From the NCBI GenBank assembly GCA_964584265.1, contig CAZOZI010000004.1:1877-65876 (forward strand): 64,000 bases of DNA. The letters are read 5' to 3'. Both the position numbers and the translations under genes were made by a program. Positions 1-58,636 of the stretch are shown here, in pieces (the stretch's first letter is position 1; every line of letters begins with the position of its first letter). The DNA is from an uncultured Candidatus Saccharibacteria bacterium. Its GTDB lineage: Bacteria > Patescibacteriota > Saccharimonadia > Saccharimonadales > CAYVSP01. The notes beneath the pieces were generated by a model that had not been told where the DNA came from, did not search any database, and saw nothing but the letters and a program-made list of their open reading frames with translations.

Positions 1-1812
1 GCACTAGTAATGTACGGTCGAGCTGGAGCCAAGCATGGTCGTGACCCACAATTGTTAATTTTAAGCAGTGAAGCTAAGCAAACGGCGGTACTTAATCTCA
101 CTAAGCTTGATAAAAAAGCTGTCCAGAAATTTTTGAGTACGCACCTAAACAACAAAGCATCGCTGGTTGGCTATGACATCAAATCGACGCTAGAAATCTT
201 GATTGAGCTTGGTGTGCCGCTGCCCGCGGTGGGGCACGATGTACTCATTGGAGCCTTTTTGCTCAACCCGCTTATACGCGAACAATCATTGACTGAGTTG
301 GCTCAAGCTGATCTTGGCTATGATGGTTCATCATTTGAAGATCTTGACCAGGCACAACTAGTTGATCGTGCAGCCGAGATAACAGGTGTAATTACAGCCT
401 TGTATGAAAAACAAACCGCTGCTCTTGCCAAGTTGCCAAAGCTTATTAAGCTGGCTCGTGACATTGAATGGCCGGTTATCCCAGTAATCGCTCGTATGGA
501 ATACGAAGGTATTCAGCTCGATACAGACTACCTCAAAAAAATGAGTGAGCAACTTGACGACATGGTGCTTGAGATTGAGCAAAAAATTTATGGTCACGCC
601 GATCAGGAATTCAATATTGGCTCACCAATCCAGCTAGCCGACATCCTATTTAACAAACTGAATTTGCCTAAAGAAGGTATAAAAAAAGGAAAAACCGGCT
701 ACTCTACAGCTGCCACTGAGCTTGATAAGCTGCGCGGGGCACATCCAATAATTGATCTCGTAACTCAGTGGCGTGAGGTCACCAAACTTAAGAACACCTA
801 CGTCGACGTTATGCCCAAAATGGTGGATGAAAACTCAAGATTACATACCACCTATGCTCTAACCGTCGCGCAAACCGGACGTCTCAGCTCCAATGATCCA
901 AACTTGCAAAATATCCCGGTTCGCACAGACCTCGGTAAGCAGATTCGCACTGCTTTTGTGGCCGGTAAGGGTAAGATACTGGTTAGCGCTGACTATTCTC
1001 AGTTTGAACTACGTCTTGCGGCTTACTTATCTGGCGATAAACGCCTGATTGATATGTTTAACCGCGACGTTGATGTGCATACCACTACTGCCGCCGAAAT
1101 ATATGGCCGCGAAGAACAGGACGTTACTAAAAATATGCGGCGCGAGGCCAAGGTTGTAAATTTTGGCGTAATGTACGGTCTTAGCACGCACGGCCTGGTG
1201 CAGGCTACTGGTCTTACCTACGAACAAGCCAAAAACTTTATTGATAAATACTTTGAAGTTCGCCCAAAGCTACGTGATTATATTGGTTCAGTTCAAGAGA
1301 TGGCCAAAACTAAAGGTTATACAGAGACAATTTTTGGTCGCCGCCGGCCTACACCTGACATTCATTCCTCTAATTTTGCTGTGCGAGAAGCTGCCATGCG
1401 ACAAGCGGTTAACATGCCATTTCAGGGCAGTGCAGCCGACATTATGAAATTGGCCATGATTGCTGTCCAATCTAAGCTCGATGAATTTAATCAGAAGTAT
1501 TTGGGTTTGGATGCAGCGCAAGGAAGCAAGGAGGAGCGAGTGAGCCGTACAAACGGTACGATGAACGAGCGACTGACGCTAGCTGACACAGCGATGCGCC
1601 AAAAGCGCGCCGGTATATCCGGCTCTGCCGGACAACAGGGCAGTGCGGCCCATATACTTCTGCAAATCCATGACAGTTTAATTGTAGAATGCAACGAAAA
1701 AGACGCTGATAAAACGGCCAAATTACTCAAAGATACCATGGAGCACGTCTATAAACTGCCAGTTAAACTCACCGTTGACACCGCAATCGGCAAAAATTGG
1801 GGTGAATTGTGA
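1..1812 (+). CDS. polA: DNA polymerase I, 3' part (5' end outside window)
   Basis: Frame of ORF 10..1812 stays open back to base 1. Family-A polymerase motifs DYSQFELR, RREAKVVNFGVMYG and QIHDSLIVE. Extra ~46-aa segment just before the QIHD strand (see findings). Confidence 0.93.
   Translation, partial: ALVMYGRAGAKHGRDPQLLILSSEAKQTAVLNLTKLDKKAVQKFLSTHLNNKASLVGYDIKSTLEILIELGVPLPAVGHDVLIGAFLLNPLIREQSLTELAQADLGYDGSSFEDLDQAQLVDRAAEITGVITALYEKQTAALAKLPKLIKLARDIEWPVIPVIARMEYEGIQLDTDYLKKMSEQLDDMVLEIEQKIYGHADQEFNIGSPIQLADILFNKLNLPKEGIKKGKTGYSTAATELDKLRGAHPIIDLVTQWREVTKLKNTYVDVMPKMVDENSRLHTTYALTVAQTGRLSSNDPNLQNIPVRTDLGKQIRTAFVAGKGKILVSADYSQFELRLAAYLSGDKRLIDMFNRDVDVHTTTAAEIYGREEQDVTKNMRREAKVVNFGVMYGLSTHGLVQATGLTYEQAKNFIDKYFEVRPKLRDYIGSVQEMAKTKGYTETIFGRRRPTPDIHSSNFAVREAAMRQAVNMPFQGSAADIMKLAMIAVQSKLDEFNQKYLGLDAAQGSKEERVSRTNGTMNERLTLADTAMRQKRAGISGSAGQQGSAAHILLQIHDSLIVECNEKDADKTAKLLKDTMEHVYKLPVKLTVDTAIGKNWGEL
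1510..1648. repeat. P1 palindromic element copy inside polA, in frame
   Basis: GATGCAGCGCAAGGAAG..GGAGCGAG..CCGTAC..GGTACG..GAGCGACTGACGC aligns block by block with the reverse complement of 26308..26426 and 15459..15565. Confidence 0.7.
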
Positions 1813-3765: not shown

Positions 3766-4248
3766 ATGCAAGAGGTATATCTGGCGTTGGGCTCAAATGT
3801 GGGGGATAGCCGTCATTTTATTGATGAGGCGATAAAACTGCTCAGCAGTTCGATTACAAATATTGTCCGCGCACCTATCTACAAATCAAAGGCTGTCGGC
3901 TACACAGACCAAGCGGACTTTTTCAATACAATTGTGCAATGTCAAACAAACCTATCGCCGGGAAAACTACTTAAGTTCATAAAAGATGTAGAGAAACAGG
4001 TGGGCAGGGTAGAGCGTTTTCGCTGGGGCCCGCGCGAGATAGATATAGACATAATTTTTTACGGGCAAGAAATGGTGCAAAAAGAAGGATTAACTATTCC
4101 ACACCCTCGTTTTCGCGAACGCGATTTTGTCCTCCTACCTTTGTGCGATCTAAGCCCTAATATTGTCGATCCCGAAACAAAGCTTACTGTTAAAAAGCTA
4201 TTAGAGAAACTACCAAAGGATCAGCAATCAGGTATATCTGAAGTCTAA
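3766..4248 (+). CDS. folK: 2-amino-4-hydroxy-6-hydroxymethyldihydropteridine pyrophosphokinase (HPPK)
   Basis: VYLALGSNVGD N-terminus, RWGPREIDIDII and HPRFRERDFVL motifs typical of HPPK. Adjacent to folP. Confidence 0.88.
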   Translation: MQEVYLALGSNVGDSRHFIDEAIKLLSSSITNIVRAPIYKSKAVGYTDQADFFNTIVQCQTNLSPGKLLKFIKDVEKQVGRVERFRWGPREIDIDIIFYGQEMVQKEGLTIPHPRFRERDFVLLPLCDLSPNIVDPETKLTVKKLLEKLPKDQQSGISEV

Positions 4249-4306: not shown

Positions 4307-4876
4307 ATGAGATACTTTTTAGGGCTGCTGACATTTATCGCTTTCATTATCTTGGTAGTGGTAGTAGTAGTTCATCATGGTTCAAATACTGGTAGTGGCA
4401 CAAGCTCCGGCATTAAAACCGTGCACTTGACTGATTACATTGATAAGAACAGTGAAGTGCAGTTGACTACTGATGGGCATATTAATAGCGAGGAAGAACA
4501 CCGCGCTATTCAAATTAACGTTACTCCAAACTCGCGAGAGGCAATCGTTTTTAGAGGATACAATCAACAAGTCCTAAAACAGGAAAGTTTACCCAATAGC
4601 AAAGCAGCCTACGATGCGTTTTTACGCTCTTTAGCACTACTCAACTTTACTAAGGAAAAAAGAGGCGTTAGACAAACTGATGAACGGGGTGTGTGTCCAA
4701 CCGGCAAGCGTTATATCTATGAACTGCTGGAAGACAATAAAGACGTTACTAGGTTGTGGTCTACCAGTTGTAGCAGCTCACAAGGCACCTTTGCAGGAAC
4801 CCCGTCAACAGTACAAACTTTATTCCAGAACCAAATTCCTGACTACAATAAGTTTGTTATTGATGTTCAGCTATAG
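4307..4876 (+). CDS. hypothetical membrane-anchored protein
   Basis: 189-aa ORF with a hydrophobic N-terminal helix (LGLLTFIAFIILVVVVVV). No recognisable motif. Confidence 0.6.
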   Translation: MRYFLGLLTFIAFIILVVVVVVHHGSNTGSGTSSGIKTVHLTDYIDKNSEVQLTTDGHINSEEEHRAIQINVTPNSREAIVFRGYNQQVLKQESLPNSKAAYDAFLRSLALLNFTKEKRGVRQTDERGVCPTGKRYIYELLEDNKDVTRLWSTSCSSSQGTFAGTPSTVQTLFQNQIPDYNKFVIDVQL

Positions 4877-4908: not shown

Positions 4909-5493
4909 ATGATTAAAGCCATAATTTTTGATTGTTTTGGCGTGTTAGCTGGCAAAGGTTACAAACGCATTTATCAGAATGCGGGGGGTGATTTAGAAAA
5001 AGATAGGACATTTATTGAAGAAACGCTTCATGCCTCTAACACGGGCCAAATTTCTCATACTGAGGTTAACAAAAGAGTTGCCGAAAGAATAGGCAAATCA
5101 CCCGAAGACTGGCACCAAATAGTTACCCAGGAAGAATTACCAAACGAAGAGCTACTGGACTACATAAAAGAACTTAAACCTCGCTATAAAATTGCAGTTT
5201 TGAGTAACGCGTACTTCGGTACCTTGAAACGAAAGTTTAGTAAAGAGCAGCTGGCACTTTTTGATGTGGCAGTTGTTTCAGCAGAAGTTGGTATGATCAA
5301 GCCGCAACCCGAGATATACAAATACGCAGCCGACCTACTTGACGTGGAGCCACAGGAGTGCGTTTTTATCGATGATATTGAACCATACGCTCGAGGCGCT
5401 CAGGCAGTGGGAATGAGTTACATTTACTATCAGGATTTCCAACAAATGAAACGAGAACTCGAAGCAATTCTAAAGACAAATAGTATACCTTAG
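4909..5493 (+). CDS. HAD-superfamily hydrolase
   Basis: Motif I IIFDCFGVL, motif II VLSNA, C-terminal FIDD acidic motif. Confidence 0.75.
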   Translation: MIKAIIFDCFGVLAGKGYKRIYQNAGGDLEKDRTFIEETLHASNTGQISHTEVNKRVAERIGKSPEDWHQIVTQEELPNEELLDYIKELKPRYKIAVLSNAYFGTLKRKFSKEQLALFDVAVVSAEVGMIKPQPEIYKYAADLLDVEPQECVFIDDIEPYARGAQAVGMSYIYYQDFQQMKRELEAILKTNSIP

Positions 5494-9515: not shown

Positions 9516-9655
9516 TTCTTTTCCAAAGAACACAAATGCTATGTTCCATTTTTGTGTCGACAAAAACGGAACCCAAAAAACGACAGGCAGCTGCCAAACA
9601 TGATTGCCGGTCTACCCAGACTTCAGCCGTGCGCTAAAGGACTCCTTTTAGTCGG
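9513..9655 (+). repeat. composite 3'-flank element, left modules (after holA)
   Basis: Module order: TAG-GTTCTTT-tcc-AAAGAAC hairpin; hairpin GTTCC-A-TTTTTG-tgtcga-CAAAAA-C-GGAAC; box AAAACGACAGGCAGC; box AGCCGTGCGCTAAAGGACTCCTTTTAGTCGG. Collinear with 31352..31489. Confidence 0.65.
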
Positions 9656-9820
9656 CTTTCGACCTTTATATTCAGAATGGCCTAGAGCTATCTTTAGCGC
9701 AACGATTCGGCTTCAGGCTGAAGCCCAGCATTAGTTTGGCAGAGCCTGAGGGTCAGAAATCTCCAGCCCGGTAAATGCTCATGTTTGCATCCGTGGATTA
9801 TTAGTAGATAATTATGATTC

Positions 9821-10342
9821 ATGGCTATTTATTGTACAACTGAGGAAGCTAGAGAATATATTAGCCACGAGCTTCCAGTTGGCCTAGAACTACCACGGAA
9901 TACAAACTTTAACACTGTAAAAAATCACTGCGCAACCGCAGTAATTTTTGCCGCGCTGGGTGAACCAGAACAAACACATAATCTTAGCCAACTTTATAGT
10001 GCATTTGCGATCAGAAGTCCGGGCTGGGCTGATGTAGAGTTTACAAAAAATGATTCTAAACGAATACGCGAGAACATAAGACGACGCAGGGATAGCAGCG
10101 AACAAGATGCAAATCTACGATTAGCTGACGGGCGCGAGGAAAATCAGATTGAGGCGTTCCGATTTATCCTAGCAAATGCGTGGAAGCTCGAAGATGATTT
10201 AGTTGATGTTTATGCAGTTGACGCTCAGGGCACGATAGCCAAGGTAACGACTATGGGTGGCTGGGTTGATCTGGAAGATTTTAATTGGCATTGGATAGCT
10301 GAATCAATTGAATCGGGTATTAAGCGAGAATTTAATTCATAA
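9821..10342 (+). CDS. hypothetical protein carried between the two halves of a composite repeat element
   Basis: 173-aa acidic ORF with no recognisable motif. Flanked by repeat modules 9513..9655 and 10415..10602. Confidence 0.6.
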   Translation: MAIYCTTEEAREYISHELPVGLELPRNTNFNTVKNHCATAVIFAALGEPEQTHNLSQLYSAFAIRSPGWADVEFTKNDSKRIRENIRRRRDSSEQDANLRLADGREENQIEAFRFILANAWKLEDDLVDVYAVDAQGTIAKVTTMGGWVDLEDFNWHWIAESIESGIKREFNS

Positions 10343-10414: not shown

Positions 10415-10602
10415 CATCTGAGAGAACCTGACTATATATTGTACAAAACAGGCGTTCTTGGGTGCGAGAGTTGTTTGACGAGTAAAAGATCCAGTGAATC
10501 TTTTACGAGGAGTTCTCGAGCAAGCCTGTTTTGAACTAATAAATAGATCAAGTGAACGAAGCAGCCCAGCAGTTTTGAGACACTTTTGCTGTCAAAAGTG
10601 TC
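10415..10602 (+). repeat. composite element, right module (structured, RNA-like)
   Basis: Aligns along its length with 31601..31785. Closing helix AACAGGC/GCCTGTT. Internal hairpin TAAAAGAT-CCAGTGA-ATCTTTTA. Terminal hairpin GACACTTTTG-ctgt-CAAAAGTGTC. Confidence 0.65.
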
Positions 10603-10637
10603 AAAGTATTGCTTCTTGGAAAGAAGAAAAGAATAAG

Positions 10638-14726: not shown

Positions 14727-15146
14727 ATGAACGCAGAAACACAAACAAACCGTGCAGCTACATCCCCTACTGTTTTGAGTCATAGTGAAGCCGATAGAAT
14801 ACTTGGTGAAGTTGAAGATACTAATAAAGCGCTGAAAAACGCTAAGATGCAAGTCTTAGGAGAAACAGCTGCTACATCTGGCATTTTAAGCAAGGATGAA
14901 GCTGAGAGAATACTTGGCAAGGTTGAAGATACTAATAAAACGTTCAAAGATTCTAGAACTCAAATTTTAGAAGAAATTCCTAATCCAGATACAGCTGGCT
15001 TGCACAAGGTAGCAAAACCTGACCATCAAATTGCAGCTAATGCTCAACCAGCCGAATTAGCTAACCCAGATATGCTAGTAGTTGATCCAGTCGATACATA
15101 CATTCGTCACGGCAATGACCGCGAACCCGTAGGTGCAGTAAAATAA
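14727..15146 (+). CDS. hypothetical protein with internal tandem repeat
   Basis: Two ~38-aa repeats (SEADRILGEVEDTNKALKNAKMQVLGE / DEAERILGKVEDTNKTFKDSRTQILEE). TGCTATAAT -10 box 14714..14719 lies 7 nt before the ATG. Confidence 0.6.
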   Translation: MNAETQTNRAATSPTVLSHSEADRILGEVEDTNKALKNAKMQVLGETAATSGILSKDEAERILGKVEDTNKTFKDSRTQILEEIPNPDTAGLHKVAKPDHQIAANAQPAELANPDMLVVDPVDTYIRHGNDREPVGAVK

Positions 15147-31351: not shown

Positions 31352-31489
31352 AGCGTTCTTCGAACGCTTCATGCAACTACCTTTCTTTGGTTGCAAAGAA
31401 AGGTAGTAAAGAAACAACAGGCGACGAGAATACACAACTGTTCGCAGATACCAGTTACGGCCGTGTGCCAAAGGACTCCCTTCGGTCGG
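31352..31489 (+). repeat. composite 3'-flank element, left modules (ORF-less copy)
   Basis: AGCGTTC-ttc-GAACGCT hairpin (31352..31368), 13-bp hairpin CTACCTTTCTTTG-gttg-CAAAGAAAGGTAG (31377..31406), box AAACAACAGGCGAC, box GGCCGTGTGCCAAAGGACTCCCTTCGGTCGG. Confidence 0.65.
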
Positions 31490-31600
31490 TCTGGCTCTTT
31501 TTTCATGAATCGAGCCAGACTGTCTTTGTCCCAATGACTCGGCCTAACCTGATTGTTCACAATCGGTTTTCTCGAGCCTGGCTAAATCAGGCTCTAGGAA

Positions 31601-31785
31601 CATCTGACTAGATGCTGTAAGAAATAGGCGCCCGTGGGTGCGAGGACTGCTTGACGAGATTTTTAGCCAGTGGCTAAAAATTGAGGAGTTCCGCAGCAAG
31701 CCTGTTTATTACAGCAGATAGATCAAATGTGACGAATGCCTGTCGTTTTTTGGGTTCTGTTTTTGTCGACACAAAAATGGAACAT
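31601..31785 (+). repeat. composite element, right module (ORF-less copy)
   Basis: Closing helix AATAGGC/GCCTGTT and internal hairpin ATTTTTAG-CCAGTGG-CTAAAAAT. Ends with an inverted copy (31738..31785) of the 9541..9589 hairpin block. Confidence 0.65.
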
Positions 31786-31808
31786 GTTTGGTTATTTGAA
31801 AAATAACA

Positions 31809-52184: not shown

Positions 52185-52483
52185 CGTCGCAATTAACTAT
52201 AACCTCGCCTCAACTTTCGCAAACAAGTGGCGAAAATTAGAGCGAGGTCTCGCGTTATTACTCCTTTTCCCAAGCTGAATCCTCTCAGCTTGGGGCTATC
52301 ACACTAGACCCTAAAGCATAAACCCTATACGCTTATAGTATGAATTCATATAAAAATGTTCTTTGGGGAGAAAGCCGGAGCGGCGGATTCATTCCGCGCC
52401 CCGCGCGTTATTGGGGTCCCCAAAAAGAGAGGATTCTTTTTGGGGTAAAGATGTGGGTGTCCCCCTCCTAAGGAGCGAACATA
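52185..52483. other. hairpin-dense non-coding region downstream of tRNA-Arg
   Basis: Hairpins at 52202..52248 (ACCTCGC/GCGAGGT outer, TTTCGC/GCGAAA inner), 52269..52294 (10-bp perfect CCCAAGCTGA/TCAGCTTGGG) and 52418..52445 (11-bp perfect). Confidence 0.5.
52418..52445. repeat. hairpin module GGGGT-[CCCCAAAAAGA..TCTTTTTGGGG]-TAAAG
   Basis: 11-bp perfect stem. Paralogue of 24930..24953. Confidence 0.55.
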
Positions 52484-55876: not shown

Positions 55877-55905
55877 ATTTTAGCACAAAAGGTATAAAAA
55901 GTCAA
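55877..55905 (-). promoter_or_regulatory. promoter of array unit 5 (type 2 module)
   Basis: TTGACT-17-TAAAAT with TGC upstream of the -10. 6 nt to the ATG. Confidence 0.7.
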
Positions 55906-55929
55906 TATTCATGCTTCTTTAACATTGCC

Positions 55930-55963
55930 GGTGTGCCTGCCTGCCGTAGGTAGGGAACTATTT
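55930..55963. repeat. array junction motif (unit 4/5 junction)
   Basis: Plus-strand reading GGTGTGCCTGCCTGCCGTAGGTAGGGAACTATTT. Confidence 0.8.
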
Positions 55964-55999
55964 ATAACTAGCAAACAAAAACCCAGTAACCAATAGGCT

Positions 56000-56323: not shown

Positions 56324-56342
56324 GATAATTTCCTGAGTATTT

Positions 56343-56371
56343 ATTCTAGCATAAACATGATAGAAAGTCAA
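56343..56371 (-). promoter_or_regulatory. promoter of array unit 4 (type 2 module)
   Basis: TTGACT-17-TAGAAT. Here a 19-nt leader with AGGAAA precedes the ATG. Confidence 0.7.
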
Positions 56372-56372
56372 C

Positions 56373-56386
56373 TGGCGGACCTTAAC
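56373..56386 (-). repeat. tRNA-Asp 3'-end-like sequence, junction 3/4
   Basis: Minus strand GTTAAGGTCCGCCA followed by GTTGAC (-35). Compare tRNA-Asp GTCGGGCCCGCCA followed by GTTGAT. Confidence 0.55.
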
Positions 56387-56392
56387 AGAAGA

Positions 56393-56408
56393 GGTGTGGA
56401 ATTATTTT
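56393..56408. repeat. array junction motif, short form (unit 3/4 junction)
   Basis: GGTGTGGAATTATTTT is the same flanks with the central 19 nt (GCCTGCCTGCCGTAGGTAG) precisely absent. Confidence 0.7.
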
Positions 56409-57379: not shown

Positions 57380-57408
57380 ATAATACCACAAAAGTAGTAT
57401 TAAAGCAA
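57380..57408 (-). promoter_or_regulatory. promoter of array unit 3 (type 1 module)
   Basis: TTGCTT-17-TATTAT, 7 nt to the ATG. About 90 percent identical by eye to the unit 1 promoter, including ATACTAC-N4-GTGGTAT. Confidence 0.7.
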
Positions 57409-57411
57409 CAC

Positions 57412-57426
57412 TGGCGGACCCTGACG
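57412..57426 (-). repeat. tRNA-Asp 3'-end-like sequence, junction 2/3
   Basis: Minus strand CGTCAGGGTCCGCCA. Matches 12 of 13 tRNA 3'-end positions with one 1-nt indel. Confidence 0.55.
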
Positions 57427-57431
57427 TTGCA

Positions 57432-57466
57432 GGTGTGCCTGCCTGCCGTAAGTAGGGAACTATTTT
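57432..57466. repeat. array junction motif (unit 2/3 junction)
   Basis: GGTGTGCCTGCCTGCCGTAAGTAGGGAACTATTTT. Confidence 0.8.
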
Positions 57467-57499
57467 GTGTTTTCAGAAGGTTTTGCTAAAAAAAAGCTA

Positions 57500-58126: not shown

Positions 58127-58155
58127 ATTGTAGCATAAACAGTATGAAAAGTCAA
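58127..58155 (-). promoter_or_regulatory. promoter of array unit 2 (type 2 module)
   Basis: TTGACT-17-TACAAT with TGC upstream of the -10. 6 nt to the ATG. Confidence 0.7.
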
Positions 58156-58156
58156 T

Positions 58157-58171
58157 TGGTGGGCCTTGACG
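58157..58171 (-). repeat. tRNA-Asp 3'-end-like sequence, junction 1/2
   Basis: Minus strand CGTCAAGGCCCACCA followed by ATTGAC (-35). Confidence 0.5.
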
Positions 58172-58176
58172 TTAGA

Positions 58177-58211
58177 GGTGTGCCTGCCTGCCGTAGGTAG
58201 GGAATTATTTT
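58177..58211. repeat. array junction motif (unit 1/2 junction)
   Basis: GGTGTGCCTGCCTGCCGTAGGTAGGGAATTATTTT. Its 3' part supplies the last codons and TAA stop of unit 1. Confidence 0.8.
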
Positions 58212-58636
58212 CTTAATTCAGGTACGACTAACGCACCGTTGTCCATAGGAATACTGTAACGATTAATCTGAGGAACGCTTAAGGATGCGGCCGTATGGAA
58301 TTCATCAGGATAAAGACGAACCCATGTAAAATCTCCTCGAGGTCTAAAAGCCCTTGCTGTAGCTACGCCGCCGACCTTAAATAGTATTCTTAACTTACCA
58401 AGCTCTAAAGATGAGCCAACGACACGAAACTCAGGGTCTGTTCTATATACTTCAGATGGTAACAAACCCCGCATGAAGCCGTTAAGTTCGTCTGCAGTAT
58501 ATAGGGGGGTTGCTGGATAACTGTGGACTTCATAACCAACCACGTCTCCATCTTCATGATGATCACGAACAGCAGCAACTACCAGTTCAGGGTTTGCTTG
58601 TAATGTGTCAACTACATCTCTTGGAAAATTAGCCAT
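58205..58636 (-). CDS. hypothetical protein, array unit 1
   Basis: 143-aa ORF. Promoter TTGATT-17-TATTAT starts 1 nt after the tRNA-Asp CCA end and ends 7 nt before the ATG. Confidence 0.65.
   Translation of the reverse strand: MANFPRDVVDTLQANPELVVAAVRDHHEDGDVVGYEVHSYPATPLYTADELNGFMRGLLPSEVYRTDPEFRVVGSSLELGKLRILFKVGGVATARAFRPRGDFTWVRLYPDEFHTAASLSVPQINRYSIPMDNGALVVPELRK

Follow-up and report, generated by a model that had tools for sequence, protein, structure and literature searches.

Protein-less repeats such as Correia/CREE, ERIC, BOX, bcr1 and REP/BIME occur between bacterial genes as multi-copy units of a few hundred base pairs, with inverted termini and presence/absence polymorphism. 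The HEARO or omega RNAs of IscB and TnpB are structured RNAs of 150–300 nt that are carried by a mobile element and selected at the RNA level, and OLE, ROOL, GOLLD and the raiA motif are long RNAs that were found by comparative analysis without a known function. Here we describe an element that resembles each of these in part. It lies in a 64,000-nt stretch of DNA from an uncultured Candidatus Saccharibacteria bacterium (contig CAZOZI010000004.1; the window hereafter), in the gap between a bla-like gene and ychF (31352–31807; gap A, or copy A). On comparative grounds we show this gap to be one copy of a predicted structured-RNA family, carried by Candidatus Saccharibacteria, of which we found no description; a second copy (copy B) lies at 9.5–10.6 kb.

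With OLE, ROOL, GOLLD and raiA the element shares its length, its many covarying helices, its conserved unpaired nucleotides and its restriction to a single lineage. It differs from them in having no Rfam match, in belonging to Saccharibacteria, in forming a self-closed rod, in being present as 2–3 diverged copies per small genome and in that its position and orientation shift between related genomes. With the Correia, ERIC, BOX, bcr1 and REP repeats it has location, termini and polymorphism in common, yet unlike palindromic repeats and miniature inverted-repeat transposable elements (MITEs) it is selected on one RNA strand and in its loops, its copies are ancient and divergent, they number 2–3 rather than tens to hundreds, and no target duplication was found. 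Unlike HEARO and omega RNAs, it has no adjacent iscB or tnpB, no Rfam HEARO match and no evident guide segment. A study of OLE RNA describes a kink-turn, a G.A-based motif, as a means of protein recognition (PMC9723947), and the tandem G.A motifs of the Saccharibacteria element could, by analogy with that account, serve in the same way.

Gap A folds at −185.6 kcal/mol, compared to −128 ± 6 kcal/mol for dinucleotide shuffles (z = −9.25; 0 of 100 shuffles were as good), and 7 of the 15 hairpins of at least 10 bp in the window are inside it or inside its homologue at 9.5–10.6 kb. A first-pass annotation of the window had described the gap as gene-free and built entirely from stacked hairpin modules. 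The six strong hairpins it listed are all present, within 2 nt of where they had been placed, but the picture of stacked modules does not hold: the hairpins belong to a single large RNA that also pairs over long distances, in which a closing helix (P1) encloses all the sequence between its strands, and the most conserved nucleotides are unpaired or internal-loop positions, not hairpins. The gap is indeed free of any credible open reading frame (ORF). Stop codons fall in all six frames across the core, as they do in 16 of 43 family members, A included; no reading frame is conserved, and relatives do not encode a conserved small protein here.

Homologues were retrieved with the longest box common to A and B, GAGGAGTTCnnnAGCAAGCCTG (19 nt), an exact-box search being insensitive. 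Metagenome contigs yielded 64 box loci, about 45 of which are true homologues that align with gap A well beyond the box, all at 38–56% GC. Species-representative genomes yielded 30 box loci and 16 true homologues; 15 of these are metagenome-assembled genomes (MAGs) titled Candidatus Saccharibacteria or Saccharimonas, and the sixteenth (L089; loci are cited by L numbers) has no taxon in its title and a DHH-family gene 70% identical to that of the window. Several MAGs hold two or three copies. Among viral contigs the only match, a chance one, fell in a phage gene of high GC content, and no match came with a second box. A covariance model, R1, built on the 132-nt core, scores 65 full or nearly full copies at 48–143 bits in the retrieved loci, plus a few weak ones, and also detects divergent extra copies that lack the exact box. 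It matches nothing in 31 other box loci, mostly high-GC or from other phyla, which we therefore consider chance box matches. With filters off, the window still holds exactly two R1 copies. The repeats first noticed in this window thus recur elsewhere, at about 60 other loci, and among the loci retrieved the family appears to be restricted to Candidatus Saccharibacteria. Its distribution looks patchy: these ~60 loci compare with thousands of comparable Saccharibacteria YchF clusters.

In the alignment of the core, stems change sequence completely with pairing kept, and the nucleotides between stems are almost invariant; one hairpin, for instance, reads AUUUUUAGCC/GGCUAAAAAU in A, UAAAAGAU/AUCUUUUA in B and CAAAUCAUC/GAUGAUUUG in L007. 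RNAalifold predicted 34 pairs in the core, 19 of them compensatory. Across 42 distinct sequences 95.1% of cells were paired, compared to 34–44% when the 3' partners were slid by 1–3 columns. Double changes were seen in 23–25 pairs (244–268 cells), against 10–15 pairs (27–58 cells) in the slid controls, and 0 of 500 shuffles reached the observed covariation values. Because pair 46–103 covaries perfectly (GC in 22, AU in 18 and GU in 2 sequences, never broken), we discarded the middle helix proposed by RNAalifold (46–101 and neighbours) in favour of the register GC-GA-Gnn/nnC-GA-GC. About 12 sequences of a GGA...CCGC class fit neither register cleanly, and parts of the middle helix, like parts of the 5'-domain alignment, are uncertain. 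Outside the modelled core, a helix P2 covaries by eye (CCAAC/GUUGG, CAUCGGC/GCCGAUG, CACAC/GUGUG). Pairs on one strand are thus kept by compensatory change beyond the controls, as in structured non-coding RNAs generally, and we regard it as almost certain that the family is one of true structured RNAs and acts as RNA.

The core is one continuous rod. Its outer helix (GAnUA/UAn(A)UC) is followed inward by tandem G.A, a helix of ~15 bp, the conserved GGCGnCCUUGGGUGC, the helix GC-GA-Gnn/nnC-GA-GC, a CUGACGA/GAGGAG loop and a variable hairpin; the core also holds the invariant GAGGAGUUC and AGCAAGCCUG. The near-invariant internal loops, rich in purines, are GAGGAGUU, AGCAAGCC, CUGACGA and GGCG..UUGGGUGC, with several GC-GA-GC tandem G.A motifs besides. 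The terminal helix P1 joins the 5' and 3' ends over 10–25 bp, and duplex folding finds P1 and P2 in nearly every copy. P1 pairing recurs with changed bases in L056 (GCAGGC/GCCUGC) and L065, and in many of the copies that we call short forms P1 contains a further GC-GA-GC/GC-GA-GC motif.

The selection acts on one strand. G.U outnumbers A.C 46:14 in two robust helices, and the alifold consensus energy is −28.5 kcal/mol forward and −15.3 kcal/mol for the reverse complement. Taken singly, 41 of 42 sequences fold better as the forward strand, with a mean difference of 12 kcal/mol in minimum free energy (MFE), and for the terminal duplex the forward strand gives the greater stability in 34 of 41. 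These asymmetries show the predicted functional molecule to be RNA from the + strand of the window. The parts of both window copies are listed in Table 1.

Table 1. Features of copies A and B and their flanks (positions in the window).
Feature	Position	Strand	Description
Flanks of gap A		+ (left), − (right)	bla-like (beta-lactamase family) gene on the left and ychF on the right, convergent
A, outer small hairpin, left end of element	31352–31368	+	AGCGTTC-TTC-GAACGCT, 7 bp; in MFE and centroid folds
A, left hairpin module	31376–31407	+	14 bp, ACTACCTTTCTTTG-GTTG-CAAAGAAAGGTAGT; hairpin scan
A, long-range closing helix P1, 5' strand	31408–31422	+	AAAGAAACAACAGGC; MFE partner 31738–31751
A, optional 5' domain	31447–31566	+	GGCCG...CGGCC, CAAAGGAC...GUCUUUG, TCTGGCTC/GAGCCAGA hairpin, CTGATTG/CAATCGG hairpin
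A, 8-bp hairpin	31490–31520	+	TCTGGCTC...GAGCCAGA, within the 5' domain
A, hairpin between 5' domain and core	31574–31595	+	GAGCCTGG-CTAAAT-CAGGCTC, also written GAGCCTG(G)-CTAAAT-CAGGCTC, 7–8 bp
A, conserved rod-like core	31603–31734	+	R1 134.5 bits, E ~1e-36; covariation
A, 10-bp hairpin	31659–31681	+	2 nt from the first-pass position
A, P1 3' strand plus U tract	31738–31753	+	GCCTGTCGTTTTTTGG; MFE fold; conserved among family members
A, right hairpin module	31754–31783	+	13 bp; inverted copy of 9543–9572; 1 nt from the first-pass position
A, outer small hairpin, right end	31791–31807	+	GTTATTT-GAA-AAATAAC; ends 1 nt before the ychF stop codon; seventh hairpin
Flanks of copy B		+ (holA), − (rpsT)	holA and rpsT
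B, left module	9516–9604	+	small hairpin, 12-bp hairpin, A tract, ACAGGC; reverse complement of the copy A right module
B, 5' domain	9613–9724	+	homologous to 31447–31566
173-aa ORF	9821–10342	+	separates the 5' domain from the core in copy B
B, core	10427–10558	+	R1 129.4 bits, E ~4e-35
B, 3' hairpin	10579–10602	+	GACACTTTTG-CTGT-CAAAAGTGTC

Family members measure 230–450 nt (~430 nt for gap A), the basic unit being a rod of ~230 nt whose two ends pair to close it. In gap A, a long form, a 5' domain of ~110 nt lies between the P1 5' strand and the core. This domain is common to gap A, copy B, L018, L037, L047, L048, L056 and L065, and in a rough alignment of 8 sequences RNAalifold found 25 pairs, 21 of them compensatory. 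In L037 the domain stands without a core nearby. Since it is found alone there and is split from the core by an ORF in copy B, the long form may consist of two modules in one closing helix. Short forms lack the domain, and in them the core starts with CCRGGC, which finds its partner directly in a GCCYGG at the 3' end.

Both ends of gap A carry a small hairpin, a 13–14-bp hairpin containing T/A tracts and a run of A or U that leads into P1, so that the two ends are inverted repeats of each other. Within the window, hairpins with T/A tracts occur only inside copies A and B. Beyond it, the right-end hairpin of L047, which comes from another metagenome, matches the module at 31376–31407 at 91% identity once reverse-complemented. 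The module type common to the right end of A and the left end of copy B recurs, ~90% identical, in L079 and L084 (a genome whose YchF is 75% identical); in L079 it lies downstream of bla. As a separate observation, the 3' hairpin module GCATAC...GTATG of L081 (~300–370, minus strand) is interrupted by a nested palindrome, CCCCAAGCTTGATTATCAAGCTTGGGG, and a similar palindrome, CCCAAGCTGAATCCTCTCAGCTTGGG, stands alone in the window at 52269–52294; this may be a second, smaller hairpin element.

The right hairpin of gap A has the makings of an intrinsic terminator, with a 13-bp stem followed by ATGTTTGGTT on the + strand (terminator scan); in many other family copies the 3' tail is not U-rich. 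Some copies have a good −10 box just upstream, such as TGTATAAT in L021. We also observed a perfect palindrome with A/T tracts, ATACTTAAC-NN-GTTAAGTAT, 20–70 nt upstream of short forms from different organisms (L061, L016, L017, L040, L043 and L063; weaker in L039); it is absent from both window copies and could be an operator or promoter element, or the terminator of the upstream gene.

The right end of gap A had been described as an inverted copy of a segment near 9.5 kb, and this is borne out: a repeat finder pairs 9541–9604 with 31722–31785 over 64 nt at 88% complementarity, and in blastn the match grows to 90 nt at 82% (31722–31807 and 9604–9515). Boxes common to the gap and to 9.5–10.6 kb had also been pointed out. 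They are real, and more than boxes, for homology runs over the full length of the gap, with same-strand blastn matches of 62–63% between 31380–31580 and 9546–9748 and between 31593–31801 and 10417–10622. The inverted match is explained by long forms bearing inverted modules at their ends (hairpin, A/U tract and closing-helix strand): the left module of copy B and the right module of copy A are the same module type. In the core the two copies are 65% identical.

The 173-aa ORF within copy B has no Pfam or PHROG match and no close homologue in a word-indexed search. An exhaustive HMMER search found 11 full-length homologues of ~170 aa each, at 31–44% identity; judging from these, the ORF represents a genuine, uncharacterised family of small proteins. 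An AlphaFold model says little about it, the mean predicted local distance difference test score (pLDDT) being 35. Two homologues were followed to their loci; rplS and rnhB flank one of them (on two contigs), the other has different surroundings, and an RNA copy is missing from all three loci, which indicates that the position of the ORF in copy B is incidental and not tied to the RNA. A role as a homing-endonuclease-like passenger was rejected, as the ORF has no domain match and its homologues occur without the RNA.

We compared the ychF-bla site across relatives, as the first-pass annotation had recommended, and found that the gap varies from 0 to ~479 nt. In the window it measures 471–479 nt and holds a long form on the + strand. 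In the closest relative (L098, YchF 83% identical) it is 0 nt, as ychF and the bla-like gene overlap. It is 273 nt of unrelated sequence with a small ORF in L099 (YchF 78%), 231 nt of unrelated sequence in L101 (75%) and 108 nt in L100 (75%), where bla is missing from the locus; the covariance model found no copy in these four 8-kb ychF loci (L098–L101). In L079 (75%) the gene order is that of the window and the gap, of 305 nt, holds a short form on the opposite strand. The core of L079 is 84% identical to the other copy in its own genome and 73% to A, whose nearest relatives, from other samples, reach 79%. The two occupants of the site are thus probably independent arrivals. As a detail of the L098 locus, the overlap spans 4 nt (4610–4613), and the bla-like gene is called at only 141 aa owing to an internal run of N (5068–5166).

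Similar shifts are seen at other sites. In L074 holA is followed by the RNA in the orientation opposite to copy B; L061 and L067 have syntenic flanks around an inverted RNA; and in L022 and L082 the RNA lies at opposite ends of clpC. Synteny breaks coincide with the ends of the element: in L008 and L053 an identity of 88% is confined to the stretch between 24 nt ahead of the model start and 178 nt beyond it, the flanks being unrelated; the similarity between L009 and L017 starts exactly at the 5' end of the element; and L011 and L037, 99.6% identical as far as 13 nt beyond the core, are unrelated from there on. From these sequence comparisons we conclude that the element is accessory and, on an evolutionary timescale, appears to come and go, to change site and to flip orientation as one unit, end modules included.

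The neighbourhood does not point to a partner. Among 109 flanking ORFs at ~65 loci no gene family recurs; the neighbours inspected are mostly of the housekeeping type by eye (ileS, clpC, gyrA, nrd), along with surface proteins and two nuclease-like ORFs, and Pfam scans of some neighbours gave no family. There is no association with tRNAs or integration sites. By crude ORF calls on redundant contigs, the downstream gene is convergent in 42 of 52 cases and the upstream ORF divergent in 33 of 57. A GIY-YIG nuclease ORF (PF22945, 1e-19; L019, 2563–3276, minus strand) ends 1–4 nt before the RNA 5' end on the same strand, as do DUF559/REase-like ORFs in L066 and L050; we take these as leads that do not form a pattern. 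In L019, a complete tRNA-Trp lies just upstream of the GIY-YIG ORF.

On balance we favour an account in which gap A holds an accessory cassette whose product is a folded RNA that acts in trans. Transcription would either start at a promoter of the element or run on from the gene upstream, and would stop at the right hairpin. The RNA would fold and be bound by protein, the tandem G.A motifs and invariant loops being putative binding sites, and a tertiary contact may form between a pyrimidine-rich loop of the 5' domain (ACUCCCUU and variants) and the invariant GAGGAGU of the core, to which it is complementary. The invariant loops, the free stems and the repeated GC-GA-GC look like sites of protein binding or tertiary contact, for which reason we favour a ribonucleoprotein RNA that would act in trans, not on its neighbours; we propose a trans-acting role as protein scaffold only tentatively. 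That the element is an accessory or mobile cassette is likely. Bounded by inverted hairpin modules, the whole cassette would shift, flip or disappear through recombination or through a mobilising activity whose gene lies elsewhere, and recombination between the inverted end modules would account for the inversions.

Several points weigh against this account. Expression of the RNA, its 5' end and its 3' end are all inferred from sequence. At the loci studied we identified no protein partner, target-site duplication or mobilising gene, and a sigma-70 scan gave no promoter-like site upstream of copy A, which, lying right after the bla-like gene, may be made as the bla tail. Some copies form head-to-head pairs (L024, 3582–3713 on the minus and 3784–3919 on the plus strand, with a third copy beyond ileS; L081, 382–513 minus and 578–699 plus) in which ~65–70 nt and a small hairpin separate the model matches, leaving little room for promoters; the second copies are much more diverged (89 and 22 bits). 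All homologues were retrieved with one invariant box, so the conservation of that box is by construction and the counts do not give the true spread of the family. The convergence of downstream genes also fits a role in cis. Some of the breakpoints, such as that between L011 and L037, could be assembly joins at a repeat, and the age of the within-genome copies, judging from A and B, means that the window genome bears no sign of recent transposition.

RNA-level selection together with mobility would also be expected if the element were the RNA part of an RNA-dependent mobile system (an IS200/605 omega RNA, a bridge RNA or a self-splicing intron) whose protein is encoded elsewhere. The nuclease-type ORFs that adjoin the RNA 5' end would suit such a system, as would the abundance of introns in Patescibacteria: two reports describe introns as unusually common there, group I introns with homing-endonuclease ORFs being frequent in rRNA and tRNA genes (PMC13011429, PMC11270868). 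We nonetheless consider this unlikely. No transposase, reverse transcriptase or nuclease recurs as a neighbour over ~65 loci, no iscB or tnpB adjoins any locus examined, the two ORF173 homologues lack the RNA at all three of their loci, and the variable parts are paired stems rather than guide-like loops. Rfam gave no intron, ribozyme or HEARO match even at E ≤ 10, and the element is intergenic, interrupts no gene and forms a continuous rod without an evident pseudoknotted catalytic core.

Within this explanation, a group I intron was the candidate most directly suggested, by GAnUA...UAn(A)UC, by the S-element-like AGAUAGUC and by the GIY-YIG neighbour; the element also resembles such introns in being a mobile structured RNA, in the nuclease-type ORFs abutting some copies and in the ORF between the RNA domains of copy B. 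It was rejected because the segments in question are the outer part of a continuous rod with tandem G.A and there are no exons. Copies lie between complete genes, no tRNAs are split, no match to Intron_gpI (RF00028) appears at E ≤ 10, and neither a P3–P7 pseudoknot nor a G-binding core is recognisable; that the copy B ORF is unlinked to the RNA at other loci sets the element further apart. A hammerhead, which CUGACGA plus a hairpin brought to mind, was also rejected, since GAGGAG stands in place of GAAA after the hairpin and Rfam gave no hammerhead match.

A selfish palindromic DNA element of the MITE or REP/BIME kind, settled between convergent genes and folding as RNA only incidentally, would account for much of the outward form of the family: units of 230–450 bp in several copies per genome, in gaps at gene 3' ends, at orthologous sites that vary in presence and orientation. 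The ends are inverted repeats, pairing over 10–25 bp in nearly all copies, with P1 strands that span 15–25 bp and inverted hairpin modules at both ends of the long form. We find it improbable all the same, for conservation is best in unpaired loops, not at the termini, and the strand asymmetry is strong (G.U far above A.C; 41 of 42 folding better on one strand), whereas MITEs have near-identical copies within a genome and no strand-specific selection. Within-genome copies are only 65% identical in the core, their pairing kept by compensatory changes, which argues for long-term selection on RNA rather than a recent burst. REP and BIME palindromes, in addition, measure ~20–40 nt and occur in very many copies, in genomes with a RAYT transposase, whereas the unit here is 230–450 nt with 2 copies in 64 kb. 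No target-site duplication was found. CGAG does stand on both flanks of short forms, the same at every locus; it seems better read as tandem G.A in the terminal helix than as a target duplication, the flank G...C becoming C...G in L063 and L036.

Nor is it probable that the element works in cis on gene 3' ends, as a terminator, insulator or mRNA stabiliser for convergent neighbours. The frequent convergence of the downstream gene is what such a role would predict. Copy A, moreover, shares its strand with the bla-like gene that it directly follows, lacks a promoter-like site upstream and has a terminator-like hairpin at its right end, and the L079 copy lies right after ychF on the strand of ychF. 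Where the upstream ORF is divergent, as in most cases, the RNA cannot be the 3' untranslated region of that ORF. Close relatives do without the element at the same site, one with a gap of 0 nt (L098), and the hairpins lack U tracts for transcription arriving from the flanking genes. A fold of 230–430 nt with invariant loops and a covarying optional domain also exceeds what termination or stabilisation needs.

A highly divergent housekeeping RNA (6S RNA, RNase P RNA or signal recognition particle RNA) is very improbable, for although a rod of ~200–230 nt with a 5'/3' closing stem and internal loops is loosely like 6S RNA, and the long form nears the size of RNase P RNA, no Rfam model of these RNAs is matched, the comparative fold lacks the large central bubble of 6S, the 5' domain is an optional extra, the copies are diverged and number two to three per genome (6S RNA usually comes in one or two and is broadly present in a lineage), position and orientation vary, and the distribution looks patchy, the element being absent from the 8-kb ychF loci of four close relatives.

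A search of the window against Rfam 15 (4227 models, gathering thresholds), also among the checks first recommended for the gap, gave nothing beyond five tRNAs. At E ≤ 10, gap A has four sub-threshold matches (14–17 bits, thresholds 45–60) and copy B none, and eight further family members gave no relevant match. Full-text literature searches gave no description of the family, and those aimed at non-coding or small RNAs of Saccharibacteria turned up none that had been described; a paper on the transcriptome of the model strain TM7x speaks of "no currently validated small RNAs" (10.1101/2022.03.25.485537). As far as sequence and predicted structure go, the element appears to belong to none of the Rfam families, MITE/REP repeats, introns, hammerheads, omega RNAs or 6S RNAs.

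Two other repeats were noticed in the window. One, of 60–88 nt with the core GGTGTGCCTGCCTGCCGTARGTAGGGAAYTATTT, is present in 3–4 copies (55887–55974, 57389–57476 and 58134–58221, also 56340–56398), located in the short spaces that separate successive genes on the minus strand and, read on that strand, directly ahead of each gene. It has no Rfam match at gathering thresholds and could be a shared promoter, a leader or another RNA motif. The other, at 14773–14976, consists of two tandem 93-nt copies, 74% identical and spaced by 111 nt, and is probably a repeated segment inside a coding region.

Saccharibacteria genomes measure ~1 Mb and are ~94% coding. An RNA of 230–430 nt with invariant loops and more than 20 covarying pairs, kept in 2–3 diverged copies, is a large investment for such a genome, which points to an important function. 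A bolder view, which we hold to be doubtful, is that the element would be a new kind of mobile unit that encodes no protein and is selected for its folded RNA, and as such a new RNA class, with a biochemistry of its own, in the candidate phyla radiation. The RNA could be a subunit of a Saccharibacteria ribonucleoprotein in which a recombinase or nuclease, for instance, would recognise the tandem G.A rod and move or invert the cassette; alternatively, it could be an RNA-structured element that propagates itself, with convergent gene ends as its targets. The family is in any case a new and well-supported candidate, from the candidate phyla radiation, among the few large RNAs of bacteria with an unsolved biochemistry, and work on partner proteins and structure can start from its tandem G.A motifs, its inverted end modules and its mobility. 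It also accounts for much of the seemingly "empty" intergenic DNA in these genomes, which the covariance model now permits to be annotated.

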